Source: Ginglymostoma cirratum (lineage: Eukaryota). Taken from it: a stretch of DNA of 64,000 nt. Of this stretch, positions 5,181-62,559 are shown piece after piece. Location of the stretch: the NCBI GenBank assembly GCA_024137785.1, contig JAHRHZ010000085.1, positions 2,046,279 to 2,110,278 of the forward strand. Reading direction: 5' to 3'. The first letter of the stretch is position 1. Every line of letters starts with the position of its first letter. The notes below the pieces were generated by a model. That model searched no databases. It saw only the letters and a list, made by a program, of their open reading frames with translations, and was not told where the DNA came from. Both the position numbers and the translations under genes were made by a program.

Positions 5181-5523
5181 ACCACTGACTAATAGAACTA
5201 TTGGAGGCACAAAGGGAAAAAAGATCTCCTCTGCTGTAACAATTCAACGATTCTGTCACCTTGTTCGCATTTCTATTGCTTGTATGTGCATCTTTGCATT
5301 GGTCACAGCACCTTTATGCTGTGCCACAATTACCCACAACGTTTCTCGATCATGTTCATGATGCAGCCTGCTCACAATTTTACAGAAGCTGAGTTGGTTG
5401 CAAGAGTGAGATGTGAATTTATTCCATCACCTTTCCTGTTCAAAATGCATCACTGCAGTTGTAATTATGTCAAAGTAGTAAAATTTAAAACAAAAACTGC
5501 AAACAAATCATTTCACTCTGATT

Positions 5524-5694
5524 GCTGATGTTTCGGGCCTAGACCCTTCTTCAGACATTTCTGAAGAAGGGTCTAGGCCTGAAATGTCAGCTTTCCTGCT
5601 CCTATGATGCTGCTTGGCCTGCTGTGTTCATCCAGCTCAACACTTTGTTATCTCAGATTCTCCAGCATCTGCAGTTCCTACCATCTCCGAAACA
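5524..5694. mobile_element. Short palindromic PLE family A insertion
   Basis: Head-to-head hammerhead copies; 14-bp TSD atttcactctgatt at 5510-5523 and 5695-5708. Confidence 0.85.
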
Positions 5695-6222
5695 ATTTCA
5701 CTCTGATTTCCTTTTTTCAACTGTTATAGACGAGACCAGAGCCACCCCACACCCCCAAAAGTATATCATGAAGATAGCCTAGATCCTAACTTTTATGTTT
5801 TTTAAAGGAAAATGTAAGACATTTATTTCCAGATGAATACAGTTGGTCCACCACGAACCTTTAATCAAAGCACATTTTATTCTTACAGCAGTTAAAATAC
5901 AACAAAAAGAATTGGCATGATTTTATTGAAACACTGAAGAAGGTAATATAATATTAACCCTAATCATCAATTGTTCCAATATAAGCAGCATCCCATAAAC
6001 ATACCCTTGGTAAAGGCAATTCAGCAACACAGCTATTATTCTCACATGCTCTCTCTCTCCCCAGTCCAGCAGAAAGAAACACCAAAGGAGACAACGACCC
6101 CTTTTGATTTTCAAGAGACAGCCGAACTAAGATTTTACTCCAGCAGTAAAGAACGCAAGCTTTAAGTTCTAGCAGCCTGCAAAAAACCCACCCCACTAAC
6201 AGCAAGCAAAACTGAAGTCTTA

Positions 6223-6397
6223 GAGATAATAGGAACTGCAGATGCTCGAGAATCCGAGATAACAAGGTATGGAGCTGCACGAACACAGCAGGCCAAGCTT
6301 CTGATGAAGGGTCTAGGCCCGAAACGTCAAGCTTTCCTGCTCCTGTGATGCTGCTTGCCCTGCTGTGTTCATCCAGCTCCACACCTTGTTGTTTCAT
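6223..6397. mobile_element. Short palindromic PLE family A insertion
   Basis: Inverted arms; 13-bp TSD aact(g/a)aagtctta at 6210-6222 and 6398-6410. Confidence 0.85.
6295..6334 (+). ncRNA. Minimal hammerhead ribozyme motif (PLE family A)
   Basis: aagctt CTGATGA a GGG-tctagg-CCC GAAAC GTC aagctt: conserved core, stem II, palindromic ACGT stem III, GUC cleavage triplet. Confidence 0.78.
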
Positions 6398-7514
6398 AAC
6401 TAAAGTCTTATGGGTCTGCATAAGCCCACCTCTCATGATTCTGTTGTCATACTTTAAAAGAGACCTTCGAGGGAGAATTCCAAAGCTGTTTACCAACTGC
6501 CTGCTTGAAGGAGATATTTTGACAACATCCCTCTGCAAGAGAAACAGGACAGAACATATCTCTTAAAGGCACAGTATAATCACACAACTCAGAAAGGGTA
6601 ATGCAATTTATAAGTACAGTGTCGAAAATATAAATTAAATTCAAATGTCACTGTTCTCTGTGTCATGTTTGGTGTTCTTCTAAAAAGTCAGATTATAATG
6701 ATTTGACAATCAGACCCAGGCATCATGTCATATAAGCCACTATTTAAAGATGCAGAATTGGTTAGTTTGGGAGGTGTGCGAGGAATGATATGTGAGCTAC
6801 TCGTCACAACTTGGCCATTCAACCACCGCATTATTTTATGAGCTCAATGTATGTTTTTATGCATGGATCCATTTCTCATGAGACCGTGGAAGTTACGACA
6901 AGGGTCACGAATAAACATGTACGCACTCCAAGTTAAATTCACGCGGCTATGTTTGTCGAGTGCATTTTGTAACCTTTTATAATTTAAAGGTATGAAACTT
7001 CATGTTACACATGGTTGAGCAGAAATTTTCAATGCTCTTCTTGGACATCACGGCCGTGAAAAATAAGGCCTAGTCTGTCCCGTGTGTATTGCTCACACTC
7101 TATAAGAACATTAACTTCCTGCCTTGGATGCCAGAACAGTAGATGCAGAGCAAACTCCAAAACTTTTACAACTCCTAATTTCGATGAATATGCTCTGCGA
7201 AGAATATGTACACTAAAAATATCCGTGACTGAATATTCAGAATTAAGCAGTCAGTAGCACGAGCCCTATCAGACTGCTTGTGCCTGTCGGAATATGGGGG
7301 GAGTTAATTAGACAAACTGCTGACGATAATCAGGTAAGTGGAAGAACTTAACATCAAAGCATATTTTGCATCGTCAATGTTCTGTTGGTTCAGCTGTTCG
7401 TCGTACAAACTGTTCCTTCCCTGGTGTTTGTGGCTAAATTGCAATAGTGAAAAGTACTATCGTATATAATTTTGAATTCGAGAATGATTAGAGGTCTCAA
7501 AAATGAACAACTAA

Positions 7515-7657
7515 GATGGAGATAGTAGGAACTACCGATGCTGGAGTCTGAGATAACGAGATTTCTGAAGAAGGGTCCAGACCCGAAACGTCAGCTTTCC
7601 TGTTCCTCTGATGCTGTCTGTCCTGTTGTGTTCATCTAGCTCTACACCTTGTTTTCC
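7515..7657. mobile_element. Short palindromic PLE family A-related insertion with hammerhead at 7565-7592
   Basis: TSD atgaacaactaa at 7503-7514 and 7658-7669; CTGAAGA a GGGTC-ca-GACCC GAAAC GTC. Confidence 0.82.
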
Positions 7658-7694
7658 ATGAACAACTAACATTGCGTGTCAGTAAGTGCACATT

Positions 7695-7815
7695 ATATGG
7701 AGGTGCCGCTGATGGACTGGGGTGAACAAGGTCAAAAGTCACACGACACCAGGTTTCAGCCCACCAGATTTATCTGAGATGACAAGCTTTCTGAGCGCTG
7801 CTCCTTCGTCAGATG
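7695..7815 (-). mobile_element. PLE family C pLTR fragment with hammerhead at 7784-7812
   Basis: Minus strand reads CTGACGA AGGAGC-agc-GCTCA GAAAG CTT; matches the ends of the 33554-34535 element. Confidence 0.72.
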
Positions 7816-9561: not shown

Positions 9562-9740
9562 ATAGAATCATAGAATCATAGAATCTCTACAGTGTGGAAA
9601 CAGGCCCTTCGGCCCAACAAGTCCACACCGACCCTTGGAGCATCCTCTTTGCAAGAGAATGCAATAAAAAAAACTCATCAGCTTCAGAATACAACATAGA
9701 ACATAGAACAATACAGCGCAGAACAGGCCCTTCGGCCTAA
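9562..9740 (-). mobile_element. 3' tails of a SINE and a CR1
   Basis: (atagaatc)n and (atagaac)n tails each followed by caggcccttcggcc. Confidence 0.75.
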
Positions 9741-9792
9741 TGTTAGACATAATCAATACCTCATAACCATTAGCAGTTCAATCTGAAAATAA

Positions 9793-10383
9793 ATTGTATA
9801 AGACTTTCGTTCGGCCACATTTAGAATACTGCGTACAGTTCTGGTCGCCACATTATCAAAAGGATGTGGATGCTTTGGAGAGGGTGCAGAGGAGGTTCAC
9901 CAGGATGTTGCCTGGTATTGAGGGCTCTAGCTATGAAGAAAGGTTGAGTAGATTAGGATTATTTTCATTAGAAAGACGGAGATTGAGGGGGGACCTGATT
10001 GATGTCTATAAAATCATGACAGGTATAGACAAGGTGGATAGCAGGAAGCTTTTTCCCAGAGTGTGGGACTCAGTTACTTGGGGTCATGAGTTCAAAGTGA
10101 GAGGAGGAAAGTTTATGGGAGTTATGCGTGGAAAGTTTTTTACGCAGAGGGTGTTGGGTGCCTGGAACACGTTGCTAGCGGAGGTGGTAGACGCAGACAC
10201 GTTAGTGCCTTTTAAGATGTATCTGGACAGGTACATGGATGGGCAAGGAACAAAGGGATACAGACCCTGAGAAAATAGATGACAGGTTTAGACAGGGGAT
10301 CTCGATCGGCGCAGGCTTGGAGGGCCGAAGGGCCTGTTCCTGTGCTGTAATTTTCTTTGTTCTTTGTTGTTTGTTCTTTGTTC
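9793..10383 (+). mobile_element. Young CR1 3' fragment
   Basis: Open 158-aa ORF (RPHLEYCVQFWSP...) and (ttctttg)n tail; close to the 27170 copy. Confidence 0.92.
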
Positions 10384-10623
10384 TAAAACTAACGGAATAG
10401 ACGCTCGATTTGAAATCCCAGAACAAGGGACAGTCAGAGCCACTGCGAAAGTAAAACGGAGAAATTGTAGTGGATGAAAACAGAACGTCGGTTGGTTTAG
10501 ATAAGGAAAAGCGAACTGAAATGCAATTCTCTTGTTAAATCAGTCTTCATCTCCATTTCCATTGAACAGAAGAAATTACAGAGGAAATTACCCTTCCATA
10601 GAATTGAGCAACAGCATTGTTTT

Positions 10624-10998: not shown

Positions 10999-13900
10999 CT
11001 ACGAAGTCAAGTTAGTTAGTTCAGTGCTTTTGTCCGTGTGCTGTATGGTATTAAAGGCCATTTTGAAAAAGGAAAACAAAAATAACTAATTTAAAATGCC
11101 ACCGGCGAGCACATGAGAATAGGAACATTTGCCTCCCCAAGACTGCCCCACTATTGAATTAATGATTGCTATTCTTCACTGCATCTTCGCCTGCGCCCTT
11201 TTGTCCCAGATGCATTTGTTCTTTTTTAACCAGAAAACACTCGAATTCACTTCAGTTGCTGCTTTCCACGTTCAAAAAGCCTGACAAAATCTTTCGAAGT
11301 TCTACTGCTCATACCGTGCTTGCTGCATTGAAAATTTAGTTTAGTAGAACTCCGTAGAACTTTTAGCATGGTCTAACCCGCTGATAGAAAGTCCTCGAGA
11401 TAATGAAGTGAACATTAGAAACCATGGTGACTGCTACTTATTAGCTGAAAATTATGAAATGTCTCACTTTTTTGAATGGTGACATTGGACTAATTAGTCT
11501 GCAATTAGCTAACTTAACGGAGCTCTTGCGCCAAATATTGAACTTAGAGAGCGTTCAAACATCACTTTGTTATGTTTCCGAGCACACTTTACCATAAATC
11601 TCTTTTCATCATCTGTATAACGTGTAGATGTTTGGAAGCCCTTCGTATTTAAAGCAGCATACAGCATCCTGTTATCATCTATGAACCGAAAAGTCTATGG
11701 ATTTTTCATTGTCGAAATTATATAAAAGCTGAATAAAAAAATGCAGAAGGGAACTTTTTGTTGGATTAATGCAAAATATATCGTGACTTGTCAGAGCTGT
11801 TCAAGTTTATTACACACTCCAGTATTTATGTATACTTGCACAGTGTTTTCCAAGTTGACTGATTTTCCGGGTTCAATAAAATTAACGAGATATGACTTTT
11901 GGCCTGCATTGATATATCAAATAGTGTCTATTTCTCATATGAGATCATATCAAATATAATTTCGAGCGGGAAAATCTAGCCCATTGAGTTTGGACACATG
12001 CTTATAAAAAAAGCCCATTCATATTCACAAAGCTCATAGCAAGGTCAACTGGGCAACATTCTAACGATATTGCTGAAGTCTTAACATATGCACAGTCATC
12101 TCTCCAGTGCAGATTTTTATTTTTTAAAAAGAGGAAATGAAACCAAATTGCTTCTTTTCTTCACAATGCCTACAATTCCCCTGTGCTCAAGATGGTAGAT
12201 CCATGTGAATATTCAGGGGATAACATACAAATGTGAAACATATGTAACCAAAGTGGAGCTAAAACATAATGATTTAATTATGCATTTTCAGTATTGTCTT
12301 TTTAACACTACTACAGTATGTGACAAAGTGAATAACATTAACTTACCATTTCTTCACGATTCACGGAATTTTCCCCATTTTTCCGCAGTCCTAGAAACAA
12401 ATGATATTATTATTCCTCCATTTATGTTATATTAAGTCTTCTTTTAAAAAATGAGCAGTCCAGTCAAAGATCGTACTTCCGTCGATGTTATTTAGAAAAT
12501 AAATACTGCAATCCTAAAACTGCTAAACATTACTGCAGATTCCAACGGTATATTAACTTTCTCAAGTATGAGTACATATTTAATGCTTCCACAAATAGTT
12601 CCCAGTGCGCAACGCCAGTTTTAGGCCAACGTGGCTCGTGAGAGAACTACCCACTCATAATTGGGGTACAGAATTAATTACGTTAATTACGTTAGTCAAA
12701 CTGTAAAAACGACTGGCGTTTAAGAACAATACAGCAAATTAAACATACAGGCCAATTAAATAATTCTCTTATTCAAAAAGAAAACAAAGGTCAGAAGGGA
12801 AACTTATTATTTCAACAAAACCGATGCTATAATTGTGTTACTTTTTGCTTAGCTATCCTACTTCTCCATAACCATCGTGTTTCGGCTCTTAACTTCCGAC
12901 TTTTACCTTTGCGTTTCTTTCGCTGACACTGGCTCCCAATAATTATGATCAGCAGCAGAAAGATCAATGCTCCTCCCGTACTCCAATACATAACTGAATG
13001 GTTGAACGCACTGTCCTTACTAGCTGGAAAACAGATAATGATGACAAAATCTATTATATAAGTGTGGCGTGCTAACTCAGATATTTTATGATGAAAATGG
13101 CAGTGTAAAGCGGAAGTATAATGATTTGAGATAAAAGGTACTGCAGATGCTGGAGAATCCGAGATAACAAGCATGGGGCTGGATGAACACAGCAGGTCAA
13201 GCAGCATCATAGGAGCAGGAAAACTTGACGTTTCGGGCCTAAACCCTTCATCAGAAAGGTTTCTGATGAAGGGTTTANNNNNNNNNNNNNNNNNNNNNNN
13301 NNNNNNNNNNNNNNNNNNNNNNNNNNNNNNNNNNNNNNNNNNNNNNNNNNNNNNNNNNNNNNNNNNNNNNNNNNNNNNNNNNNNNNNNNNNNNNNNNNNN
13401 NNNNNNNNNNNNNNNNNNNNNNNNNNNNNNNNNNNNNNNNNNNNNNNNNNNNNNNNNNNNNNNNNNNNNNNNNNNNNNNNNNNNNNNNNNNNNNNNNNNN
13501 NNNNNNNNNNNNNNNNNNNNNNNNNNNNNNNNNNNNNNNNNNNNNNNNNNNNNNNNNNNNNNNNNNNNNNNNNNNNNNNNNNNNNNNNNNNNNNNNNNNN
13601 NNNNNNNNNNNNNNNNNNNNNNNNNNNNNNNNNNNNNNNNNNNNNNNNNNNNNNNNNNNNNNNNNNNNNNNNNNNNNTTTCTGATGAAGGGTTTAGGCCC
13701 GAAACGTCAAGTTTTCCTGCTCCTATGATGCTGCTTGACCTGCTGTGTTCATCCAGCCCCATGCTTGTTATCTCGTATAATGATTTGAGTTTTTAGAAGG
13801 CACAGACTATATGAATGTTCCTAGCGGCTAACTTCATATCCGGGAAAAACAGTGGTAAATGAAAACAAAATGCTGAGCAAAAAACTGTCAGAAAAAAAAA

Positions 13901-16900
13901 CAAAGGTTTAATAAAATTACTAGAGATAAGAATTTCAGCGAGAGGCGATCACTGAAATATTGCCCGAGGAAGACACGCGTCAAACTAATTACAACATGGT
14001 AAATGCCTTCGATAAGAGGTGGGAAAACGGAAAGCAGAAGATGGAGAAGCCACATATGATAAAAGTATACATGAACATAGCAAGAAGAATGCTTACTAAC
14101 CCAGAAAAAAAATGAGAATGTATATGCAGTGTGAATCGAACAAAGAGACCGGTAGAAATTTTAATCCTGTGCTACTTTAGGTATAACTGCGAAAGTGGAA
14201 TATAGCAGGTAATTTTAAAAGGGTACAATGAACGTAACAAAACCGGGAGATAGGAGGGTTTATCTAAACAGAGACTTGACAAAATAAATCTCTAGAAGCT
14301 AGTTTGCAAACAGAGATCAATTAATTCAATTGAAAAAGAAACTTCCACAATGATATATGAATGGAGCATGTTGGAAACAGTCAATTTTAGATTTAACACT
14401 GTGTAATGAACTAAAATTATGTCCCTTGGGAAATAAGTGATCATCAATGGTAACATTAAGATCTTTAAGACTGGCAGAGTTGTGCATAAGTTCAAAATGT
14501 GGCTGTGAAATATAAAGAAATCCACCGTCTGAAGTTGAGTGAGTGAGTTGGCTGAAGCAGATTTGAAAATAGATTTAATAATACAAAGTTAGGGAATCAA
14601 TAGCAATCATTAATTTCAACAAATCCATTTCATTAATGAAAACATTGTTTGCTGGAATATGATAAAACTGTAGCCAAGGGGAGGAGTTAAGAAATAGGAT
14701 GTCAGCACTCTATCTTAGTGCAAATTTGGAATAATAAACACCACATTAGCTGTGTTTAAATGAAGAAATTGACGATGTTGCTAATAGGAAGCAGTGAGCC
14801 GAAAGGCTGGGATTATTTTAAAATCAGTAAATAGATGGTGGCTCAGTAGTTAGCACTGCTGCCTCACAGCACCAGGAACCCAGGTTCATTTCCACCCTTG
14901 GGCAACTGAGTGTGTGGAATTTGCACATTCTCCCCATGTCTGCTTCGGTTTCCTCCGGGTGCTCCAGTTTCCTCCCACAATCCAAAAGATGTGCAAGCTA
15001 GGTGGATTTGACATGCTAAATTACCCCATAGTGTTCAGGAATGTGTAGCTTAGGTGGGTTATGGGGGAATGGGTCTGGGTGGGACGCTCTGATGGTGGGT
15101 GTGGACTTGTTGGGCCGAAGGGCCTGTTTCCGTACTGTAGGGATTCTATGATATACTTTGATCTTCCAAAATACTCCAGGATGCAGATTCGCTCTTATGC
15201 ATAGACAGGCGGCAAATACTAGATTGCTTCTCAACAAGGAAAACATAAACCAAATGTGAACTAGATGCAAGTGAGTCTATAAAATGGCAAGGAAATGCTA
15301 AAATCTATTACTAGCAGCAACAGAATAAGATATTTATAAAATGTCATTTTGAATGTGTATTAACAAGTAAGCTTTGTTATAGAATATCATATCTGACAAA
15401 TGTGTTTGAACATTTTGTTAGTTAAAAACAGATGAATAGACATTCAGAAATTACCAGGATCTTTGTCAAAGCTGTTTTGAAGGTAACTTTGTGTAAGTTT
15501 TTGAAGCCCACAGAAATCGATAGTGGTCTTGGTGCTGCAAAGCTACATCAATGACACAGAATCATGGATAGGCAGCTCTTGTGATGCAGTGGGAGTGTTC
15601 CTACCTCTGAATCAAGAGGCCTGGTGTCAGGTCCCACCTGCTCCAAGGGTGTGAAATGACATTTCTGGACAGGTTGATTACAAAATATCTTTGTGTATGG
15701 ATAAAGGCCTCTTGAGGCACTGTGGTGATGTCCCTATCTCTAGGCTAGAAAAACTGGATTCACATCCCACCTGGTCCAAAGGTAAAGTTATAACATGTCT
15801 GAACCTTGTAAGTCAAAATATTAGCAAAGTACTGGGCTTGCAGAGAGAGTGCAAATGCTCAGAACACCAAGCTGGCTTGACAGAATCCAAGATATGCTAG
15901 CAAGTAAAATCAAATGTTTAAAATCTTCCAAATCCAGCCATCAAACTGATTTCCCCTTTTGTTACCACTGAATGGTTGATAATATTTTCACAGACATTGA
16001 TTTTTATTTTGTAAGTAACTATCTCATAAAATTGTGCAGCGTTTCTGCACTGAAAATACAATTGCACTTTACCAAGGGTTTAATTACAAAGCATCTTTCC
16101 AAAAAGATGCACACCACAACATGTTATGCTCCATGGAGAGTGAAAGAGTGGCAGTGAGCATTGGATTGAGCTTCACTCCAGATCTGTCAGGATTGTGTAC
16201 TGACTCTGCATCCACTTCTACATATTTATTCTTCCTCTCATTCAAGCGATGGTCGACCGAAGATTGAAATAAAATGCAAATGCACATTGATATACCACCA
16301 GCTCATTATTTTGGAAAGGATGTCAGCAATCTACCTTGGTGTAAATTCGGAACAATAAATGTCACGTTAGCTGGAAATGGCAGGGTGACATGAGATACTT
16401 GACAAGTATAAACAACTCCACTCTGGACAGACTTCAAAAGGCTGGAAACTTTGTAAAGTCCATCTATGTTCAATTCTTTGGTTGTCTCTGGGTGAATTGT
16501 AATTTCAATTCCATTTTTGTACCATTTCAGAATGAACGCCTCTGGATAAAAATCATTTGTTTCACATATGAGATCCAAAAGAGTGGAATTCAAGAAAGGC
16601 ACGTTGGACAAAATTCTCAGTGGTGTTGGTGGAACTGCAAGAGGGGTAAAAGGCATACCAATTACATTCATTTTATAAGGAAAGATTAGATAAAAAGATT
16701 AAATAAACTGTCAATAATCAACAGACCATTGAATAATTGTAACTAAGTGGTATCCAGTGCATAAGAATAATCAATAAGACTATCTCTTGCTCTAATCTAA
16801 GTGACATTCAACCCAACATTGAAATGTAATGTAAATGCAATTAAGTGATTTGAGGAAAGTACAGAAATTTAAGAATAATGGACACGGCTTTGAAAGGGGG

Positions 16901-19198: not shown

Positions 19199-19223
19199 GC
19201 TGAATAATAAATCTTCATAAATA

Positions 19224-21769: not shown

Positions 21770-23650
21770 GAGATAATAGGATATGCAGATGCTGGAGAAT
21801 CCGAAATAACAGGGTGTAGAGCTGGATGAACACAGCAGGCCAAGCGGCATCATAGGAGCAGGAAATCTTGACGTTTCGGGCCGAGACCCTTCATCAGAAA
21901 TGGGGGAGGGGAAGAGGGTTCTGAAATAAATAGGGAGAGAGGGGGAGGCAGATGGAAGATGGATACAGGAGAGGATAGGTGGAGAGGAGACAGACAAGTC
22001 AAAGAGGTCTGAATGGAGCCAGTAAAGGTGGGTGTGTGGGGAGGTAGGGAGGAGATAGGTCAGTCCAGGGAGGATGGACAGGTCAAGGGGGCGGGATGAG
22101 GTTAGTAGGTAGGAAATGGAGGTGCGGCTTGAAGTGGGAGGAGGGGATAGGTGAGAGGAAGAACATGTTAGTGAAGCGGGGATGAGCTGGGCTGCTTTTG
22201 GGATGCGGTAGGGGGAGGGGGGATTTTGAAGCTTGTGAAATCCACATTGATACCATTGGGCTAACAAGCGTGGGACTGGATGAACACAGCAGGTCAAGCA
22301 GCATCATAGGAGCAGGAAACCTTGACGTTTTGGGCCTAGACCCTTCATCAGAAATGGGGGAAGGGAAGAGGGTTCTGAAATAAATAGGGAGAGAGGGGGA
22401 GGCGGATAGAGGATGGATAGAGGAGAGGATAGGTGGAGAGGAGGCAGACAAGTTGAAGAGGCGGGGATGGAACAAGTAAAGGTGAGTGTAGGTAGGGGGG
22501 TAGGGAGGAGATAGGTCAGTCCAGGGAGGATGGACAGGTCAAGGGGGCGGGATGATATTGGTAGATAGGAGATGGGGGTGGGGCTTGAGGTGGGAGGAGG
22601 GGATAGGTGAGATGAAAAACAGGTTAGGGAGGTGGAGATGAGCTGGGCTGGTTCTGGGATGTGGTTGGGGGAGGGGAGACTTTGAAGCTTGTGAAATCCA
22701 CATTGATGCCATTGGGCTGCAGGGTTCCCAGGCTGAATATGATTTGCTGTTCCTGCAGCCTTCGGGGGGGCATCACTGTGGCATTGCAGGAGGCCCAGGA
22801 TGGACATGTCCTATCTACCAACATCATCCCGCACCCCCCCCGCCCCCCGACCTGACCATCCTCCCTGGACTGACCTATCTCCTCCCTACTCCCCTACCTG
22901 CACTCACCTTTACTGGCTCCATCCCCGCCTCTTCAACTTGTCTGCCTCCTCTCCACCTATCCTCTTCTCTATCCATCCTCTATCCGCCTCCCCCTCTCTC
23001 CCTATTTATTTCAGAACCCTCTTCCCCTCCCCCATTTCTGATGAAGGGTCTAGGCCCGAAACATCAAGTTTTCCTGCTCCTATGATGCTGCTTGACCTGC
23101 TGTCTTCATCCAGCCCCACACTTGTTATCTCGGATTCTCCAGCATCTGCAGTACCTTTTATCTTTGATACCATTGGGCTGCAGGGTTCCCAAGCTGAATA
23201 TGAGTTGCGGTTCCTGCAGCCTTCAGGTGGCATCGTTGTGGCACTGCAGGAGGCCCAGGATGGACATGTCATCTGAGGAGTGGAAGGGGGAGTTGAAATG
23301 GTTCGCAACTGGGAGGTGCAGTTGTTTGTTGCAAACTGAGCGCAGGTGTTCTGCAAAGCGGTCCTCAAGCCTCCGCTTGGTTTCCCCAATGTAGAGGAGG
23401 CCACAACGGGTACAGAGGATGCAGTATACCACATTAGCAGATGTGCAGGTGAACATCTGCTTGATGTGGAAAGTCTTCTTGGGGCCTGGGCTGGGGATGA
23501 GTGGGGAGGCGTAGGGGCAGGTGTCGCACTTCCTGTGGTTGCAGGGAAAAGTGCCGGGTGTGGTGGGGCTGGAGGAGAGTGTGGAGTGGACAAGGGAGTC
23601 ACGGAAAGAGTGGTCCCTCCGGAAAGCAGACAAAGGTGAGCAGGGAAAAA
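21770..23650 (-). mobile_element. PLE family A copy (GIY-YIG and pLTR) interrupted by a nested family A insertion
   Basis: ORF 23223-23633 has CNHRKCDTC and VVYCILCTRCGLLYIGETKRRLEDRFAEH; hammerhead at 21870-21897. Confidence 0.9.
22263..23163. mobile_element. Nested palindromic PLE family A insertion
   Basis: 16-bp TSD ttgataccattgggct at 22247-22262 and 23164-23179; inverted arms. Confidence 0.88.
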
Positions 23651-24479
23651 TGTTGTTTTACTTGGGCATGAGACAGCAGTGAATAAAGTTCTACCTCCTA
23701 ATTTTGTGAATTTCTTCTTGCACGTCGGACATCAGACATCATTAACTGCATGTTTATCTTATACCAATTTTTATGTACCATTTTCACTTGTCCATTAGAT
23801 TCGTGTTCATGGTATTTAGGTATTTGATACAAAAACTCTGACGATTCCTGTCCAACACTTATTGATCTGCAACATAAACAGAAACTGCTCGATTATCACA
23901 GCAATTTTGATTTTGATTTGTATTTATTGTCACGTGTACGCAAGTGCAAAAAGTATAGGAGCACAGTGAAAACTGTATAACGTCGCCACACAAGGCACCA
24001 TCTTGGGTACCAGTATCTCGGTGCAAAATCTTAACAAGTTAGAAAGGAAAAAACAAAGCTAAAAGTTAAACATTGCAATAATTACAGCATAGCGTAAAAC
24101 ATGAAATAAGGTTCAAAGTTAAATATTGCAGATCTTCTTAGTTTTAAGTAGAAAATAAAGAAATAAAATGTTCAAACATTATGGTCTTTCTCAAGTGCTT
24201 AGCCACGGTGGAATGAAATGTCCATGTTGAGGCTATGCCAGGCTGAGAGACCATCACGTACTGTCAAAAGACCACCAGGCCTGGCTGAGTGGCTGCCACA
24301 CCAGGCCAAGAGTCTGTCATGCTGGGCCAAAAGTCAGTCACCTAGTCTGTCTTTGCTTATGATTTCCAGCATCTGTAGTTCTTTAATTTTTTTTTATCAA
24401 TTTAACTGCATTATGTGGCAACAATCAACAATTATTAGATGAATTGGAAAGTTTATTCAAAATGGAAATGACAAAAAAA

Positions 24480-27169: not shown

Positions 27170-28863
27170 TGAGGAGAGGGACATGATGAATGTTGAGATT
27201 AGAGATAGAAGTTTGTTTACTCTGGATCATGTTGACATAAGGAGGGAAGATGTGTTGGGTAGGCTAAAGGATATTAAGGTGGACAAATCCCCAGGACCGG
27301 ATGGGATCTATCCGAGGATGCTGAGGGAGGTGAGAGAGGAAATAGCTGGGGCCCTGACAGATATCTTTGTAGCATCCTTAAACACAGGTGAAGTGCCCGA
27401 GGACTGGAGAGTTGCTAATGTTGTCCCCCTGTACAAGAGGGGAGTAGGGATATTCCAAGTAACTACAGACCAGTAAGCCTGACGTCAGTGGTGGGAAAGT
27501 TGCTGGAGAAGGTACTGAGGGATAGAATCTATTTATATTTGGAAAATAATGGGCTTATCAGTGATCGGCAACATGGTTTTGTGCAGGGGAGATCATGCCT
27601 CACTAACTTAATAGAGTTCTTTGAGGAAGTGACCAAGTTGATAGATGAAGGAAGGGCTGTAGATGTCATCTACATGGACTTTAGTAAGGCGTTTGATAAG
27701 GTTCCCCATCGTAAACTAATGGAGAAAGTGAAGTCACATGGTGTGCAGGGTGTTCTAGCTAGGTGGATAAAGAACTGGTTGAGCAACAGGAGACAGAGAG
27801 TAGTAGTTGAAGGGAGTTTCTCGAAATGGAGAAAGGTGACCAGTGGTGTTCCACAGGGATCAGTGCTGGGGCCACTGTTGTTTGTGATATACATAAATGA
27901 TCTGGAAGAGGGCATAAGTGGTCTGATCAGTAAGTTTACAGATGACACGAAGATTGGGGGAGTAGCAGAAAGCATAGGGGATTGTCAAAGAATACAGGAG
28001 AATATAGATAGACTGGAGAGTTGGGCGGAGAAGTGGCAGATGGAGTTCAATCTGGGCAAGTGTGAGGTGATGCATTTTGGGAGGTCTAATTCTAGAGCAA
28101 ACTATACTGTAAACGGAAGAGCCTTGGGAAAAGTTGATGAGCAGAGAGATCTGGGAGTTCAGGTCCATTGTACCCTGAAGGTGGCTGCACAGGTGGATAG
28201 AGTGGTCAAGAAGGCATATGGTATGCTTGCCTTCATCGGACGGGGTATTGAGTATAAGAGCTGGCAGGTCATGTTAAAATTGTACAAGACTTTGGTTCGG
28301 CCGCATTTAGAATACTGTGTACAGTTCTGGTCGCCACATTACCAAAAGGATGTGGAAGCTTTGGAGAGGGTACAGAGAAGGTTTACGAGGATGTTGCCTG
28401 GTATGGAAGGTGCTAGCTATGAAGAGAGGTTGAGTAGGTTAGGATTGTTTTCATTAGAAAAAAGGAGATTGAGGGGGGACCAGATTGAGGTCTTCAAAAT
28501 CATGAAGGGTATAGACAGGGTTGATAGAGATAAGCTTTTTCCCAGGGTGAGGGATTCAATAATGAGGGGTCACGCATTCAAGGTGAGAGGAGAAAAGTTT
28601 AAGGGGGATACACGCTGAAAGTACTTTACACAGAGGGTGGTAGGTGCCTGGAACGCGTTGCCAGCAGAGGTAATAGAGGCAGGCACAGTAGATTCATTTA
28701 AGGTGCGTCTGGACAGATGCATGAGTAGGTGGGGAGCAGAGGGATACAGATCCTTAGGAATTGGGCGATAGGTTTCGACAGTGGATTTGGATCGGCACAG
28801 GCTTGGAGGGCCGAAGGGCCTGTTCCTGGGCTGTAAGTTTTCTTTGTTCTTTGTTCTTTGTTC
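27170..28863 (+). mobile_element. Young CR1 LINE with near-intact RT
   Basis: 376-aa ORF with QHGF, DFSKAFD, GVPQGSVLGP, YINDL and FTDDTK; KSPGPDG upstream; one frameshift and one nonsense codon; (ttctttg)n tail. Confidence 0.96.
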
Positions 28864-29633: not shown

Positions 29634-30301
29634 GTGTGTGAGTCTGTAATTAAGAAAGTGAATGGAATGTTGTCATTTATCTCAAGAGGGTTGGAATATA
29701 AAAGCATTGATGTGCTTCTGAGACTTTATAAAGCTCTAGTTAGGCCCCATTTAGAATACTGTGTCCAATTTTGGGCCCCACACCTCAGGAAGGACACACT
29801 GGCACTGGAGCGTGTCCAGCGGAGATTCACACGGATGATCCCTGGAATGGTAGGCCTAACATACGATGAAAGGCTGAGGATCCCGGGATTGTCTTCATTA
29901 CAGTTTAGAAGGTTGAGGGAAGATCTAATAGAAACTTACAAGATAATGCATGGCTTAGAAAGGGTGGACGCTGGGAAGTTGTTTCCGTTAGGTGGGGATA
30001 CTAGGACCCGTGGGCACAGCCTTAGAATTAGAGGGGGTCAATTTAGAACGGAAATGAGGAGACAGTTCTTCAGCCAGAGAGTGGTGGGCCTGTGGAATTC
30101 ATTGCCATGGAGCGCAGTGGAAGCCGGGACGTTGAATGTCTTCAAGGCAGATTGATAAATTCTTGATCTCGCAAGGAATCAAGGGCTACGGGGAGAGTGC
30201 GGGTAAGTGGAGTTGAAATGCCCATCAGCCATGATTCAATGGTGGAGTGGACTCGATGGGCCGAATGGCCTTACTCCCACTCCTATGTCTTATGGTCTTA
30301 T
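29634..30301 (+). mobile_element. CR1 3' fragment of a second subfamily
   Basis: 173-aa ORF RPHLEYCVQFWAP...; (tatggtct)n-like tail. Confidence 0.92.
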
Positions 30302-32245: not shown

Positions 32246-32278
32246 TTATTCATTCAGGAACTACATCCTATTTAATGT

Positions 32279-32680
32279 TGTATCAGAGATAAAAGGTACT
32301 GCAGATGCTGGAGAATCCGAGATAACAAGCATGGGGCTGGATGAACACAGCAGGTCAAGCAGCATCATAGGAGCAGGAAAACTTGACGTTTCGGGCCGCA
32401 ACCCTTCATCAGAAATGGGGGAGGGGAAGAGGGTTCTGAAATAAATAGGGAGAGAGGGGGAGGCGGATAGAGGAGAGGATAGGTGGAGAGGAGGCAGACA
32501 AGTTGAAGAGGCGGGGATGGAGCCAGTAAAGGTGAGTGTAGGTAGGGGGGTAGGAAGGAGATAGGTCAGTCCAGGGAGGATGGACAGGTCAAGGGGGCGG
32601 GATGATGTTAGTAGATAGGAGATGGGGGTGTGGCTTGAGGTGAGAGGAAAAACAGGTGTTCATCCAGCCCCATGCTTGTT
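32279..32680. mobile_element. PLE family A insertion with a short inverted terminus
   Basis: 14-bp TSD atcctatttaatgt at 32265-32278 and 32681-32694; hammerhead at 32385-32412 (-). Confidence 0.88.
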
Positions 32681-32771
32681 ATCCTATTTAATGTACCTGG
32701 TTGAAACAAAAGGTAAGTCACTCGATGGCACAGCTTGTTTCCAGTCTGACCAATGGCATGTTTATCTAACA

Positions 32772-32935
32772 TAACACAGTGTGGAGCTGGAGGTACACAG
32801 CAGGCCAGGCACCATCAGAGGAACAGGAAAGCTGATGTTTTGGGTCGGGACCTTGTGCTGTCTGGTCTGCTGTGTACCTCCAGCTCCACACTGCATTATC
32901 TCAGACTTCAGCATCGGCAGTTCTTACTATCTCCG
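32772..32935. mobile_element. Older palindromic PLE family A-related insertion
   Basis: TSD tgtttatct(a/g)aca at 32759-32771 and 32936-32948; inverted arms. Confidence 0.75.
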
Positions 32936-33553
32936 TGTTTATCTGACACACTTGTTGCTTGTAGACTCCCTGCTGTGCCTACCAGAAGAAAATGTTAGGA
33001 GGAAACAGGCTGCGATTGGCTGAGGAGTTGTACAGCAATTTTCAAATTAACATCCTTTTTTGTTCATCTGTGTATCTTTGGCAGGAGCTCACATGCTACA
33101 TACCCACCCTAGACAGGTTGCATTGTCGCACTTGGGTTTCATGTTCTGGGTGACTGCCTTTCACCACAAGTCACCACTTGCATGAATCATTCTTCACCAA
33201 ACTGGAGAAAAGTTGAAGTTAATGGGTATCATGGGCCTTAATTTTCATATGCTCAGTTTGGTTTCCTTCATTTCAGTTACAGAGAAGTGAGCTGTTACTG
33301 TTTGATGCCGTTGAAAGTAACAATGCTCAGCCTTGTTTTAATTCACTCATATCACATTAATGAATGGATCCATGGAAATTTCATGGAGAGATATGAGGTA
33401 GCTATTCCACCATCAGTTATGTTCAATTTGTTATTCATTTGGAAAGGAAGATGAGAGAAAAAGAAAGAAACGTGATGTAATGCCTTCTCCTTTCTTTGCC
33501 TGAGCACCAGGTATTTTCACTCATTGCATCTGCTCTCTATTGTTCTTAAATTC

Positions 33554-34535
33554 AAAGTCAGAAAACACATGACACCAGGGTATAGTCCAACAGGATAATT
33601 GGAAAACACAAGTTTTTAGAGCCTCACTCCTTCTTCAGGTGTATATTGGTGAGACCATGCAGATGCTATGACGGATGAATGGACACCTGTCAACAATCGC
33701 TGGACAGAAATGTTCCCTCCCAGTGAGGGATAACTTCAGTGGTCAAGGCCTCGGATCTTTGGGTAAATGTCATCGAAGGTGGACTTCGAGATACACAACT
33801 GCGCAGAGTCACCAAGCAGAGCCAAGCTCGGTACCCATGAGGACAGCCTCAACCAGGATCTTGAGTTCATGTCACACTACAGGTGACCCCACCACACTGT
33901 ATACTCTCACATACACACACACTCTCTCTCTCTCTCTCTCTCTCTCACTCACACACACACACACACACACACACGCTGTCTCTGCCTCACACACACAAAT
34001 GTAAATCTGTGGGGTGAATTTGTATTTGCAGATACATTCTATTTTGTTTAAAAAGGACACAATCTATAGACAGTCAGTCAATGTGGCATTTTATAAATTC
34101 CTACTTTAGAAATGTAACCAGTCTGACTCCAAACCAAAACACAAACAGATCCTAAACAAGGCCTCACACCTAACATGCAATGTCTGACCTAAAATGTCAT
34201 CTCTTCGTAACACTGATAAAGCCTTTTGCTTTCTCAGGGCAGTGCCTTGAAAGGCATCTGGGGATTTACATATACATATTAATCAATTAAAACCTTCTAA
34301 CTGATTAATGATTTAACAACATGTGGGGTTTGTCTAATACATCCTCATCAGTGGTGTGACCCTTTGATCTTTTACTTATAAATTGTGTGTCTGATACAAC
34401 CTCTCTCACTAACACCTGAAGAAGGAGTGTGGCTCTGAAAGATTGTGTTTTCAACCAAACCTGTTGGACTATAACCTGTTGTCATGTGATTTCTGACCTT
34501 GTCCATCACAGTCCAACACTGGCACCTCCACATCA
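33554..34535 (+). mobile_element. PLE family C copy with inverted 5' pLTR, GIY-YIG remnant and microsatellite
   Basis: Inverted terminal segments; YIGET...RMNGH remnant; hammerhead-like motif at 34416-34444; TSD ttcttaaattc at 33543-33553 and 34536-34546. Confidence 0.78.
33905..33997. repeat. (CT)n(CA)n microsatellite
   Basis: Seen directly. Confidence 0.95.
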
Positions 34536-44022: not shown

Positions 44023-46120
44023 AAAAACAGAAGTTGCTGGAAAAGCTCAGTAGGTCTGGCAGCATCTGTGAAGAAAAAAAATCAGAGTTAATGTTTTGGG
44101 TTCTTCCTCAGAACTGATGGTATCTGAGAAAACGTCGGCTTATACGCAGAAATTAGGGAGGGGGATGGAGTAGGGTGTAAACGACAGGATAGAGCCTGAA
44201 GAGACAGAAGAGCAGTTGGACAGACAAAGGAGTTGATAACGATCTGGCTGGGACAGTGAATATTTGTTAATGGGGGCTGTTAGTGACTAACAGTAGGTAG
44301 TGTGTAATGGCAGGCTATGTGATAACAGGGCCTGGGGAGTAGGGTTGGGGGCTGGGAATGGGAGAGTTTAGGCCCTAAAATTATTGAACTTGATATTGAG
44401 CCTGGAGGGTTGCAGGGTCCCCAAGCCGAAAATGAGATGTTGTTCTTCCAGCTTGCGTTGAGCTTCACTGGAACGCTGCAGCAAGCTAGAGACAAAGATG
44501 TTGGCCAGGGAACAGGGTGGTGTGTTAAAGTGGCAGGCAACAAGTAGCTCAGGTCCTTTTTTTTTGCAAGCAGAATGTAGATGTTCTGTGAAGCGGTCAC
44601 CCAGTCTATGCTTTGTTACCCCAATGTAGAGGAGACCACATTGTGAGCAACGAATGCAGTAGACTAGATTCTGGGAAGTGCAGGTGAAGTGTTGCTTCAC
44701 CTGGAAGGTATGTTTGGCTACTGGGGAGGGAGGTGGTAAATGGGTAGGTGTTGCACCTTCGTCGGTTGCAGGGGAAGGTGCCATAGGGTGGTGTGGAGGT
44801 GTTGGGGGTGAAGGAAGTGTGGACCAGGGTGTCCCGGAAGGAACAGTCCCTGCGGAAGGCGGACAAGGGAGGGGAGGGGAATAATTTCTGGTGGTGGCAT
44901 CTTGCTGGAGGTGGTAGAAATGGCTTCTGATGATCTTCTGGATGTGGATGCTGGTGGGATGGTAAGTAACTATTGTTATAGTGGGATGGGAGAGAAGGGG
45001 TGTGGGTGGAAGTGCGGGAGATGGGTCGGACCCAGTTGAGGGCCCTGTCGACAACAGTGCTGGGGAATCCTTAGTTGAGGAAGTAGGTAGACATGTCGGA
45101 GGGTCCCTTGTCAAAGTTGGCCTCATCTGAACATATGCAACAGAGATGGAGGAACTGAGAAAATGGGATGGAATCTTTACGGGATGCAGGGTGTGAGAAT
45201 GTATAGTCCAGGTAGCTGTGAGAGTCAATGGGTTTATAGTGGATATTAGTGAGCAGTCCATCCTCAGAAATGGAAACAGAGAAGTCGAGGAAGGGAAGGG
45301 AGGAGTCAGAGATAGACCAGTTGAAAGTGAGGGCAGGGTGGAAATTGGAAGCAAAATCAATGAACTTTTCCAGTTCTGGATGAGAGAGGGAAGCAGCACC
45401 AATGATGTGATCGATATATCAGACGAAGAGTTGTGGGTGGGGGCCGGAATAGGCTGGAACAAGGTAAGTTCCATGTAACCCAGGAAGAGACAGGCATAAC
45501 TGGGGCCCATGAGGGTACCCATGGTCACGCCTCTGACCTGAAGAAAATGAGAGGTGTTAAAAGAGAAGTTGTTGAGGGTGAGGATGGGCTCGGCCAAGCA
45601 GAGGAGGATGGTGGTAGGTGGGGATGGTTCTACATTGGAGAGGCTGAGCGCCAGCTCTCAGATTCTTCCTCCTATTTTCCCTTGGTCCATGACCCCACCA
45701 TGACGCATCAGGCCTTTGTAACTACTACGGTAACTGATCTCATTCCATCTGTTGACTATCACCCACTGCTTCCAAGCTGATAGTAACCCAGCCCCACACA
45801 GTTTGCTTCTACCTCCTTCCAAAGATTCACAAAGAGGACTGTTCAGGCAAACCCATTGTTTCAGACTGGTCCTGCCCCACAGAACTTATCTCTTCTGACC
45901 TTGACTCCTCTCCCCCGGTCCAGTCCTTGCCCATGTACATCCGTGATTCCTCTGACGCTTTCCACTGGTTTCAAAACTTCCAGTTTGCAGGTTCCAGCTG
46001 CCTCCTCTTCACCATGGATATGCAATCCCTTTATATGTCCATCCCCTACCAGGAAGGTCTTAGGGCTCTCCGATTCCTCCCGGAGAAAGGACCTGTACCG
46101 TCCCCATCTACCACCATCCT
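44023..46120 (-). mobile_element. PLE family B copy (RT, GIY-YIG, pLTR) with an inverted 5' segment at 45628-46120
   Basis: ILTLNNFSFN, GVTMGTLMGPSYACLF and VYCIRCSQCGLLYIG on minus; PKIHK and FTMDMQSLYMSIP on plus. Confidence 0.92.
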
Positions 46121-46370
46121 ACCATTGTCTCTCTTTCAAATTACTGGGAACCAACTCATTCATATGACAGGAAATTACAAAACAAACAATTAAACCACCC
46201 TCATATTTGGCTGATCATATCTGCTCTGCAGCACATACTTGGATTTGCTTGATTGGCCCAAGATCTGGGCCTCTAAGGGGGTCTTGACTTAAAACAGTAA
46301 ATTCAGGTAAAATGCTAAATGTCAGACAAGCGGGCCTAGATTTTATACTAGATTACCTTTAAATCTTTTA

Positions 46371-52699: not shown

Positions 52700-54431
52700 A
52701 TAACAAGCATGGGGCTGGATGAACACAGCAGTCAAGCAACATCATAGGAGCAGGAAAACTTGACGTTTCAGGCCTAGACCCTTCATCAGAAATGGGGGAG
52801 AGGAAGAGGGTTCTGAAATAAATAGGGAGAGAGGGGAGGCGGATAGAGGATGGAGAGAGGAGAGGCTAGGTGGAGAGGAGGCTGACAAGTCGAAGAGGCG
52901 GGGATGGAGCCAGTAAAGGTGAGTGTAGGTAGGGGGGGTGGGGAGGAGATAGGTCAGTCCCGGGAGGAAGGACAGGTCAAGGGGGCAGGATGATGTTAGT
53001 AGATAGGAGATGGGGGTGTGGCTTGAGGTGGGAGGAGGGGATAGGTGAGAGGAAAAACAGGTTAGGGAGGTGGAGATGAGCTGGGCTGGTTTTGGGATGC
53101 GGTTGGGGGAGGGGAGATTTTGAAGCTTGTGAAATCCACATTGATGCCATTGGGCTGCAGGGTTCCCAGGCTGAATATGGTTTGTTGTTCCTGCAGCCTT
53201 CGGGTGGCATCACTGAGGCATTGCAGGAGGCGCCGGATGGACATGTCATCTGAGGAATGGGAGGGGGAGTTGAAATGGTTCGCGACTGGGAGGTGCAGTT
53301 GTTTGTTGCGAACTGAGCGCAGGTGTTCTGCAAAGCAGTCCCCAAGCCTCTGCTTGGTTTCCCCGATGTAGAGGAAGCCACAAGGGGTACAGCGGATGCA
53401 GTATACCACATTGGCAGATGCGCAGGTGAACATCTGCCTGATGTGGAAAGTCTGCGATAGGGTTAGACCTTTCAAACCCCACCAACAAAGACATTTTAAC
53501 CTCCCCACCCTTATCTGCCTTTCGGAGGGACCACTCCCTCCGCGACTCCCTTGTCCGCTCCACACTCCCCTCCAGCCCCACCACACCTGGCACTTTTCCC
53601 TGTAACCGCAGGAAGTGCTACACCTGCCCCCACACTTCCTCCCTCACCCCAATCCAGGCCCCAAGAAGACTTTCCACATCAGGCAGATGTTCACCTGCAC
53701 ATCTGCCAATGTGGTATACTGCATCCGCTGTACCCGTTGTGGCTTCCTCTACATCGGGGAAACCAAGCGGAGGCTTGGGGACCGCTTTGCAGATCACCTG
53801 CGCTCGGTTCACAACAAACAACTGCACCTCCCAGTCGCGAACCATTTCAACTCCCCCTCCCATTCCTCAGATGACATGTCCATCCGGGGCCTCCTGCAAT
53901 GCCACAGTGATGCCACCCGAAGGCTGCAGGAACAGCTAATCATATTCAGCCTGGGAACCCTGCAGCCCAATGGCATCAATGTGGATTTCACAAGCTTCAA
54001 AATCTCCCCTCCCCCAACCGCATCCCAAAACCAGCCCAGCTCATCTCCACCTCCCTAACCCGTTATTCCTCTCACCTATCCCCTCCTCCAACCTCAAGCC
54101 ACACCCCCATCTCCTATCTACTAACATCATCCCGCCCCCTTGACCTGTCCGTCCTCCCTGGACTGACCTATCTCCTCCCTACCCCCACCTTTACTGGCTC
54201 CATCCCCGCCTCTTCGACTTGTCTGCCTCTCCTCTATCCATCCTCTATCCGCCTCCCCCTCTCTCCCTATTTATTTCAGAACCCTCTTCCCCTCCCCCAT
54301 TTCTGATGAAGGGTCTAGGCCCGAAACGTCAAGTTTTCCTGCTCCTAAGATGCTGCTTGACCTGCTGTGTTCATCCAGCCCCATGCTTGTTATCTCGGAT
54401 TCTCCAGCATCTGCAGTACCTTTTATCTCTG
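52700..54431. mobile_element. Large palindromic PLE family A insertion with two inverted GIY-YIG/pLTR arms
   Basis: 17-bp TSD atacattttaatccatg at 52683-52699 and 54432-54448; mirror ORFs 53062-53586 (-) and 53615-54058 (+); hammerhead at 54303-54330. Confidence 0.93.
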
Positions 54432-59608: not shown

Positions 59609-60660
59609 AGAACAGGAGTAGGCCATTTGACCTTTCAAACCTGATCCACCATTCAACATGATAATTGTTGATCCTCTATCTCAGTGCCATATTCCCACCT
59701 TCTCTTCAATGACCCTTAAAATCTAAAAGAAGATCCGGCTTTTCCTTGAATATATTCAGTGACTTAGCCTCCACAGCTTTCTGTCCAGAATTCCATAGGT
59801 TAATTACCCTGTGAGTTAGGAGAAGTTTCCTCATTTCAGTTCTAAATGATATGCAGAATCCCCTGGTTCTAGACTCCCCAAATAGCAAAAACATCCCCCT
59901 TGCTTCTAGTCTGTCCAGCTCTTTTGAATGTTACACATTTCAATCTGATACCCTTTCATCCTTCTAAACTCTGGTGAGTACGAGACCAGTTAACCCAATA
60001 TTTCTTCACAGGACAGTCCTGCCAAGCCTGGTATCAATGCATTGAACATCGACTGCACTTACTCTTTGGTAAGTATATCTTCTTTAAGATAGGGAGACCA
60101 AAATTGCACACAATACTGCAGGTGTGATCTCATCAAGGTCCCATATAACTGCAGTAAGGCATCCCTACTCCTGAACTCAAATTCTCTTACAATGAAAGCC
60201 AATCTTACTTTTTCCTTCATAATTGTTTGCTGCATCTACTTTTATTGACTGGTTTGCAAGGGCACCCAGACCATGTTTGGTCATTTGCATACCCAATATG
60301 TCACCATTTAAATAAGATACTTCCTCCCTGTTTTTCCAAATGAACTATGCAACTTCACATTTAGCCAAATTGTACTGCATCTGACCTGTGCTTGCCCACA
60401 CACTCAAATTGTCTAAATTACTTTGCAATCTCCATGCATCCTTCTTAGAACTCACAATCCCACCCAGGTTTTTTTTGTCATCAGCAAACTTGTTGCATTT
60501 GGTTCACTTGTTCAAATTATTTAAATATATCACAAACAGCAGGGGCCATGCATTGATTATTCTCTTGCCCCACTAGTCACTGCCTACCAGGTGGAAAAAT
60601 ATACATTTATTCCCTGTCTTTGTTTAGTGTATTGCAACCAATTTTTGATCCATGCCAATA
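59609..60660 (-). mobile_element. Degenerate CR1 3' portion
   Basis: GESRTRG...VINLWNS peptide. Confidence 0.78.
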
Positions 60661-61547
60661 TATTTAAGATGAAGCATGAATAAAGTAAAATCCATAAGAG
60701 ATTGCCAACTAGAAGTAGCAGAATAAGTTTTTCAATTACAATTTGAAAGTTTATGACCAAGTAATTGGGACACTCTACTGATACATGCAACTAATCTGAA
60801 TATTCCTAGTTCACTGTGGACAGATTAGATCATGTCAGGAGTCGCATCAGGCACAACTGAAAATGTGCTACTGAAATGGTGAAGCTCTAACATAAAATTA
60901 CATGCATCAATTGTTGTAGAGAGTACCAGACTTTCACCCAATGAATGGATTAAATCATAATATGCAGTGCAGCATTGGGCAAGAGTTAGTGATGGGGAAT
61001 GTTTGAAAATTCCCTTACAAGTGAAATAGGAGACTCATCAAAATTTCCATTATGAAAGCTAGTGGAGTCCTCCAAATGACCCTAAATAAGCAATGGGCAC
61101 AACAGCCAGTTCAAAAGAAGAGTCATACTGGACTTGAAATGTTGTTGCTGGTTCTGACTTTACGGATGCTGACAAACCTGTTCAGTTCCTATAGAATTTT
61201 GGGAAGTGTGGATGACTGAGGAAGCTTACAATATTCTGCTTAATCAAATGATCATGTAAGTGCAGTGATAGCCAGAGATAAGTTATTCTACGACCAAAGG
61301 ATTGATCTAAGACCACAGATACCAGTCTTCAGCTAGTTTGATTGACTCCAGGCGATATCAAGTAATGACTGAAGACACTGGCTACTGCAAAGTTTATGCT
61401 ACCTCACAATATTTTGGAAATTGGTCTGAAGACTTATGCCTGAGAGTTTGCTACACTCTTAGCCAAGTTGTCTCAGTACAGCCATAACATGGACAATATG
61501 GAATACTGCCTTGGTATATACTGTACACAGAAAGCAGGAGAAATCTG

Positions 61548-61635
61548 AGATAACAAGCATGGGGCTGGATGAACACAGCAGGTCAAGCAGCATCATAGGA
61601 GCAGGAATTCTCCTCTGCAGTACCTTTTATCTCTC
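61548..61635. mobile_element. Minimal 88-bp PLE family A insertion made of both termini only
   Basis: 14-bp TSD gcaggagaaatctg at 61534-61547 and 61636-61649. Confidence 0.85.
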
Positions 61636-62559
61636 GCAGGAGAAATCTGTCTTGGTCAATTACTGCTGTATTAAGCTACTCTCTATCATCAGTATCGTGA
61701 TGGAAGGGGTTATCAACAGTGCGATAAAGCTGTACCTGCTTAGCAATCATATTCTGTGTTGGTGGGGCAAAACTTGGAATTCACACCATAACAGCATTGT
61801 GGATATATTTACACCACATGGGCTGCAGTAGTGCAAGAAGACAGCTCATGCCAACCTCTCAAGGGCAATTAGGGCAAGTAATAAATGCTGGTCCAGCTAG
61901 CAAAACATAGTTCTCCTGAATTACACAAAATAAAATCAAATATTCCTTGTTTGTGTTCAAGATTTTAAAAGGGACAACATATAAGGAAAGGAACATTCTT
62001 ACCACAGAAGGGTAAGGCACCTATGATTTATCATGAAAGAGTACAACAATCTCTTTTCTTTGTTTAAATTTAGTAATAATACTGCACAGCCTGAGAACCA
62101 ATAACTTCTGGAATAATCACCACAGATAAACTTAACTTATCATTAACTGGGAAGTGAATTAAAGTGATAAGTACAAACCATGAGATTGGAACTCTGCTGT
62201 TATTAAATCACCTTGTGACTCCAATAAGATACAATATATATAAACATAAAGTACTTTACCTTTATCCGAACTCTTCTCCAAATTCTCGAGATCATCATCC
62301 TGATGTAACAACAAACAGCCTGTATGAGTAGAACTACATATATTCACAAAAAACATCCTCTTCCTCCATCATTGTTGCTGCAATGCACACCAGAGACACT
62401 GGATAATTGTCCTTTCAGAGCATTTTCCAAACCTGTAATCTCTATCAGCAAGGAAAAAATGTATTCAAGGCTTAATGTAGAACTAAAGGCAGCAAAGCCC
62501 CCTTCAGTAGACTGTCCTTTGCAATCTTTCTGTGGATCTGCCAAAATCAGATGGACTGC

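Follow-up and report, generated by a model that had tools for sequence, protein, structure and literature searches.

Palindromic insertions of a Penelope-like element in Ginglymostoma cirratum combine one long and one short outer end at a two-sided target motif

The window analysed here is a stretch of 64,000 nucleotides from Ginglymostoma cirratum (contig JAHRHZ010000085.1, positions 2,046,279 to 2,110,278 of the forward strand). It contains nine insertions, each consisting of two opposed pieces of the same 3′ sequence flanked by target site duplications (TSDs). A preliminary description of this DNA had listed the starts of these insertions, ascribed them to a Penelope-like family and given their TSDs as 12-17 bp long. 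All nine were located and their arms mapped, the TSD lengths were as claimed, and all nine are 5′-truncated copies of one Penelope-like element (PLE) family (Table 1). Positions within the element are counted from the last base of its tail, which is position 0 (window 54429, + strand), with negative numbers upstream of the tail end. As the preliminary description had it, every one of the nine insertions carries the tail at one outer end; the tail motif occurs five times in the window at no more than 3 mismatches, compared with none in 100 shuffles. The other outer end, which had been described as about 33 nt shorter, lies near -33 in eight of the nine. The exception is the insertion at 5524, whose second piece pairs with the 5′ part of the long arm as a hairpin and is not a short-site end. 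We call the arm that includes the tail the long arm, the arm ending near -33 the short arm, and the two places on the RNA to which these ends correspond the start regions.

Table 1. Coordinates of the nine insertions and of associated features of the Penelope-like family in the window
Feature	Position	Strand	Structure	TSD	Remarks
Insertion 1	5524..5694		inverted piece -130..-98 left, long arm -131..~+7 right	14 bp, exact	second end non-canonical
Insertion 2	6223..6394		long arm left (from -74), short arm right (from -128)	16 bp, 2 mismatches	older subfamily
Insertion 3	7515..7657		long arm left (from -43), short arm right (from -130)	12 bp, exact	older
Insertion 4	13131..13774		long arm -129..0 left, short arm -129..-33 right	15 bp, exact	young; 400-N gap 13278-13677 mid-insertion
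Older family copy interrupted by insertion 5	21770..23653	-			tail at 21770; GIY-YIG frame 23223-23657
Insertion 5	22263..23163		short arm left, long arm right	16 bp, exact	young; nested in endonuclease/3′ region of older same-family copy
Insertion 6	32279..32680		long arm left (reaching +7), 28-nt short arm right	14 bp, exact	orthologous site empty in related organism
Insertion 7	32772..32935		short arm left, long arm right	13 bp, 1 mismatch	diverged subfamily, 74-77% to young one
Insertion 8	52700..54431		short arm ~750 nt left, long arm ~980 nt right	17 bp, exact	GIY-YIG frame 53606-54058
Hammerhead-like motif, minimal	54303..54330	+	core, stem II, cleavage triplet		in pseudo-LTR of insertion 8 right arm; candidate, by sequence
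33-nt tail	54397..54429	+	between the two start regions		same heptamer before each start region
Insertion 9	61548..61635		short arm -93..-34 left, tail-only long arm -30..+1 right	14 bp, exact	

A copy of the family at another locus (L249) has an unbroken frame of 1,037 amino acids between two pieces of pseudo-long terminal repeat (pLTR), with a unit length of 3,533 nt. The encoded protein matches RVT_1 and GIY-YIG in Pfam above cut-off, and both the protein and its homolog alignment contain a CCHH motif, two cysteines between GIY and YIG, and the catalytic residues R, H, E and N. This open reading frame (ORF), with its reverse transcriptase (RT) and GIY-YIG endonuclease (EN), and the Penelope-like layout bear out the family assignment. 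The window arms encode the GIY-YIG domain as well, and the closest named proteins, at 75-78%, are those of the bamboo shark. A C-x4-C-x2-C linker between RT and EN is found in L249 and in the window copies and is conserved across the homolog alignment. A CX2-5CxxC linker at this place is a Neptune trait, with a form of the same in Nematis (PMC8557442), and by this linker, common to the two, we place the family as a putative Neptune-type EN+ PLE. Its copy number is very high, with 54,317 and 42,525 exact matches to two 26-mers in the 4.36-Gb genome.

Pseudo-LTRs arising from partial tandems were observed at L249, L247 and L131-L144, and 753 exact matches to tail plus read-through sequence were found. 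In the direct insertions L131-L144, a pLTR is followed by 50-270 nt of read-through into the ORF start and then by a second pLTR piece, a structure that we read as suggesting that copying often leaves the template at the -130 end and resumes at sites in the ORF start. The ORF begins about 40 nt past the tail, so the RNA continues beyond both start regions. In the pLTR, a candidate hammerhead was recognized by its core motif, and its stem II folds; no hammerhead match was returned by Rfam. Minimal hammerheads occur in fish Neptune elements (PMC4209133). Weak microRNA matches in the Rfam scan turned out to be the palindromes themselves, and folding of the tail region in five sequences revealed no structure beyond that of shuffles (z -1.0 to +1.9). 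Another Penelope-like family, which is more diverged and about 70% identical to the young one over the EN region, is present at 44368-46200 and 316-1536 of the window; RT pieces on both strands at the former suggest an inverted unit.

Insertions were collected from contiguous blocks (594 kb without N), from loci near listed pattern matches, and from loci picked by likeness to the long arm or the ORF; three of six 200-kb blocks consisted of N alone and contributed nothing. The first set comprised 106 distinct TSD calls, of which 102 were kept after removal of two inside element sequence, one nested and one doubtful call. The second set comprised 22 calls, of which 15 were kept after removal of five duplicates, one false TSD and one nested insertion, the last of which is also of the long plus short type. 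The total is 117 TSD-defined insertions. Two loci lying 46 kb apart on one contig (L148 and L149) contain nearly the same long insertion, through either a segmental duplication or an assembly duplicate, and a second nested case (L187/L188) has one insertion inside the inner junction of another.

All 78 insertions with two canonical outer 3′ ends combine one long with one short end. This was found in 67/67 insertions of the first set, in each of its four sampling groups, and in 11/11 of the second. Direct, one-ended insertions account for 34 of the 117, split into 17 long and 17 short; an inverted piece of the tail, 15 nt long, is present in one of the latter. The outer ends had been described as fixed; they are focused, with long ends between -2 and +10 in 73/76 and short ends between -41 and -30 in 65/66, and the distance between the two ends within one insertion ranges from 30 to 54 (n=44). 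Because the ends shift, the shared heptamer TTATCTC, which was said to finish both ends, is not terminal in all. Extra bases are found at about a quarter of the ends (22/86 long, 22/83 short). In a check made by eye and without TSDs, 100 listed tail matches contained three outward-facing pairs at most 3 kb apart, namely one nested pair, one internal read-through and one pair of separate insertions.

The TSDs have a mode of 14 bp (48/117), and 99/117 are 13-16 bp long. At 3-8 bp outside the TSD we found a two-sided, mirror-symmetric motif, which reads A, A, -, C, A/C, A/G plus its mirror image. Base use deviates from background after correction at positions -8, -7, -5, -4, -3 and -2 of 96 half-sites, with A at -7 in 64/96 and a purine at -3 in 88/96. 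A matrix trained on 41 sites gave 45 held-out sites a score of 3.1 versus -1.5 (p 4e-20), and the same matrix gave 13 newly fetched sites 3.9 versus -3.9 (p 3e-9), the best spacing being 14-15. Both target half-sites score above 0 at 29 of 48 sites and neither does so at 3, whereas both do at 4.7% of random sites; the weaker half-site is still above random (p 7e-11). Half-site strength is no different on the long and the short side (1.59 vs 1.79, p 0.44, n=25), and the order of nicking is therefore unreadable from it. An empty orthologous site, which the preliminary description had proposed to seek in a relative, was found for the young insertion at 32279, the one site examined in this way. 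In a related organism that is about 5% different, contigs from two studies join window 32264 to 32681 fully, with one TSD copy, and two other related-organism runs cover one side only of this join among the matches listed. Both junctions of the insertion at 32772 are also present in that related organism.

The target ends also match the RNA past the start regions. As measured at clean young ends, the first TSD bases at long ends continue the RNA sequence for 2.31 nt (n=45), compared with 0.70 at random sites and 0.76 in permuted real sites, and at short ends for 1.41 nt (n=44), compared with 0.66 and 0.63 in the same two nulls. All 2,000 permutations stayed below the observed value, and the second set is concordant (2.5 nt, n=8; 2.7 nt, n=3). 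No link was found between this overlap and TSD length (rho 0.08, n=25).

The 39 insertions of simple structure have insert lengths of 62-2,188 bp. Their inner junctions comprise 18 with an overlap of 1-7 nt, 5 blunt ones and 16 with filler, as read from BLAST overlaps with no control. The preliminary description had these junctions varying freely and looked to identical ones at many loci as the sign of amplification. Recurrence was seen in only 2 of 741 junction pairs, which lie at a hotspot at -129 and have different fillers. For two window junctions, no identical second copy was found among the 40 best-scored candidates each; the junction of the insertion at 61548 has a few near-copies, the best two at 93% and of different length. 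These observations support the conclusion that each insertion was built anew and not amplified as a unit. The freedom is not complete, as the breakpoints of 41 out of 160 arms fall within -133..-127, immediately 5′ of the hammerhead core, versus 2 in the 7 positions upstream. This cluster near -130 probably reflects an RNA 5′ end.

We consider it somewhat more probable than all other readings combined (about 0.55) that the insertions of this Neptune-type element are built on site by a paired RT-endonuclease, which would place a nick in each strand, the two about 14 bp from each other, and use each overhang to prime one complementary DNA (cDNA). Two protomers would each read one half-site of the target, and their paired nuclease would set the two nicks. 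Each 3′ overhang would anneal by a few bases at one of the two start regions, which lie about 33 nt apart, and would then be extended. Both overhangs likely sit on one RNA, which would force one long and one short end. The cDNAs would stop early, often at -130, and would be joined head to head by microhomology or with filler. Failure of one priming would leave a direct, one-ended insertion, while template switches would yield tandem pieces and arms of unlike subfamily. The polarity of the arms agrees with priming from both nicks, and together with the 78/78 pairing it fits the earlier proposal that two target nicks prime at two fixed RNA positions, although "fixed" is too strong; the statistics are observed, and from them we infer the two nicks, the dimer, the sequence of steps and the use of one RNA. 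A single RNA, with a template switch now and then, is favoured by the strictness of the pairing and by the recurrence of the heptamer ahead of each start region. A predicted complex of two copies of residues 1-172 had a score of 0.30 and a mark of 0.32, values that speak neither for nor against a dimer. In a wider and more tentative formulation, which we hold to be possible but somewhat short of an even chance, integration would be concerted and two-ended, unlike that of long interspersed nuclear elements (LINEs). A dimer would sit on a palindromic bipartite site and, in the manner of a restriction enzyme or transposase, cut it with a fixed stagger of 14 nt. Its two RT sites would engage two repeated start motifs separated by 33 nt on one RNA, a few bases of target-RNA pairing would set the register of each, and the tail would correspond to the spacing of the active sites.

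Several observations weigh against paired priming on one RNA. In 5 of the 83 inverted insertions the second end lies at -75, -80, -88, -98 or -187, all of them with a long arm. Stops of long arms near -33 pile up weakly (7 at -26..-44 and 0 at -45..-61, of 56). Of the simple insertions, 22 have a short arm that extends further 5′ than the long arm, 11 show the opposite and 6 have arms of equal reach, and the difference between 22 and 11 is not significant (p 0.08). Anchored loci that gave no TSD call, owing to gaps, edges or long inserts, are numerous and uncounted, and 21 of the 67 two-ended insertions have N gaps inside them. In the anchored loci L162-L245, 400-N assembly gaps fall mid-palindrome with high frequency, so that the most symmetric junctions are under-sampled. 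For PAc, a Poseidon element of Anolis studied in vitro, the start site is called non-homologous to the target, with no strand difference (PMC11167929), whereas the ends here match the RNA. In addition, about 5 of 42 arm pairs (L017, L239, L020, L152 and window 22263; by eye) differ at linked subfamily sites with both arms extending beyond -130, which points to two templates.

Such discordant pairs favour the same two-nick priming on two RNAs, one per protomer or used successively, with an asymmetry of the complex directing one protomer to the tail end and its partner to -33. We regard this variant as rather unlikely, though it is the strongest of the rivals. Both arms often copy the same several hundred bases, which on one RNA would need strand displacement, and concordance among young pairs is barely above random (discordance 0.123 vs 0.144, p 0.04, n=29). 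However, since either site works alone (17:17), two RNAs would need an extra rule to produce 78/78 long plus short insertions, and over all pairs the subfamily discordance of the arms is 0.147 versus 0.39 for random pairing (n=50). Private variants common to both arms (L013, L221), and about 4-5 close inverted pairs that share a rare variant (among 100 listed rare-variant matches, by eye), also speak against two RNAs, although gene conversion or a single source locus could yield them too. A T-to-A variant on one arm, considered as proof of two templates, was rejected: in a genome-wide listing, about 13 of 100 non-T matches have A and most have C, as expected of recurrent mutation enriched by the query.

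Self-priming has been proposed for the head-to-head units of Pen2a_Av (PMC3846280); in this scheme a single priming is followed by fold-back, possibly on an antisense template, and the second arm is a copy of the first, trimmed at the tail. Six of the 39 simple junctions are indeed nearly symmetric, and the insertion at 5524 and four other non-canonical cases resemble hairpins on the long arm. Most junctions here are nonetheless a misfit: the asymmetry exceeds 10 nt in 33 of 39, and 22 have a short arm with sequence absent from the long arm, which excludes a simple fold-back copy of the long arm for most insertions. The short ends, moreover, match the target above chance and stand alone in 17 direct insertions, and the two-sided target motif would be left unexplained. 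We think this scheme improbable. The reading of the palindromes as true units of the kind known as miniature inverted-repeat transposable elements (MITEs), amplified whole by a transposase or as RNA, is largely refuted. The terminal inverted arms, the TSDs, the very high copy number and the few near-identical 61548 junctions would suit it; but the rarity of recurring junctions, the differing fillers and the absence of an identical copy of two window junctions among the 40 best-scored candidates for each would not, and the arms are nested 3′ pieces of a retroelement, from 25 nt to full length, whose outer ends shift with the target sequence.

An inverted pLTR with a one-sided tail of 30-40 bp is the typical PLE layout (PMC8557442, PMC3846280, PMC8969392), described also for Penelope of D. 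virilis (PMC2377424). How PLEs finish integration and form inverted, tailed structures is stated to be unresolved (PMC8557442, PMC11167929). Like the units of Pen2a_Av and other EN+ PLEs (PMC3846280, PMC8557442), the insertions described here are head-to-head 5′-truncated copies with a tail at one end, a TSD, partial tandems and microhomology at 5′ junctions. In Pen2a_Av, however, the tail is optional and single-copy TSDs are 8-10 bp long, whereas here the pairing is strict, the TSD length peaks at 14, and the target motif and primer-RNA matches are measurable. In vitro, PAc cuts both strands and extends them, reverse transcription begins at two adjacent internal sites that delimit its tail, its pLTR contains a hammerhead, and a dimer is predicted (PMC11167929). 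The family studied here likewise has two adjacent internal start regions that delimit the tail; its pLTR holds the candidate hammerhead motif, and the both-strand cutting and predicted dimer of PAc parallel the scheme that we propose. In contrast to PAc, it belongs to another clade, as indicated by its Cys linker, and its ORF starts after the tail, whereas that of PAc starts within the hammerhead. A preference for AT-rich sites is reported for PAc, and the available text of PMC11167929 describes no dyad target or long/short pairing.

The inverted pLTR layout and the two internal start sites are thus already published, and the layout is ordinary for the class; what is added here is the strict long/short pairing, the TSD peak at 14, the two-sided target motif and the primer-RNA matches. 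In LINE-1 twin priming, both target strands also prime on the RNA, which gives an inversion inside one TSD; there, priming starts at the poly(A), the internal site used by the second primer varies, and there is no overlap between the two pieces. The insertions here differ in having no poly(A) at the outer ends, a second site focused near -33, and arms that mostly both cover the region upstream of -33. MITEs are defined as short and numerous, with inverted ends and a TSD (PMC8969392). Unlike them, the arms here map wholly onto the 3′ end of a retroelement and each inner junction is individual; no dedicated transposase search was made. A literature search that did not extend to older reviews found no report of a symmetric PLE target, a fixed stagger, strict long/short pairing or primer-RNA matches, which leaves their absence from print unproven, and the available text of PMC12910113 and of bioRxiv 10.64898/2026.07.22.740005 adds nothing further on targets.

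PLEs are the retroelements closest to telomerase. The tens of thousands of young copies provide numbers that are testable in the existing in vitro assay, namely a symmetric motif, a 14-nt stagger, one long plus one short start, and short primer-RNA pairing. They also carry a warning for annotation, as such hairpins are retro-products and not DNA transposons.

Besides the PLE families, the window contains on the - strand, at 16306-16698, a frame with an immunoglobulin C1-set domain (E 5e-11), which is probably an exon of a host immune-type gene, with the insertions lying in its introns or surroundings. Two further inverted pairs do not map to this Penelope-like family: one at 33553-34501 (90 bp at 86%), and one at 9691-10370 (48 bp at 88%), which flanks a LINE-like RT fragment. 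Frame fragments of non-LTR (LINE-type) RT were found at 27419-28618, 2474-3387 and 29634-30155, the longest of which matches RVT_1.

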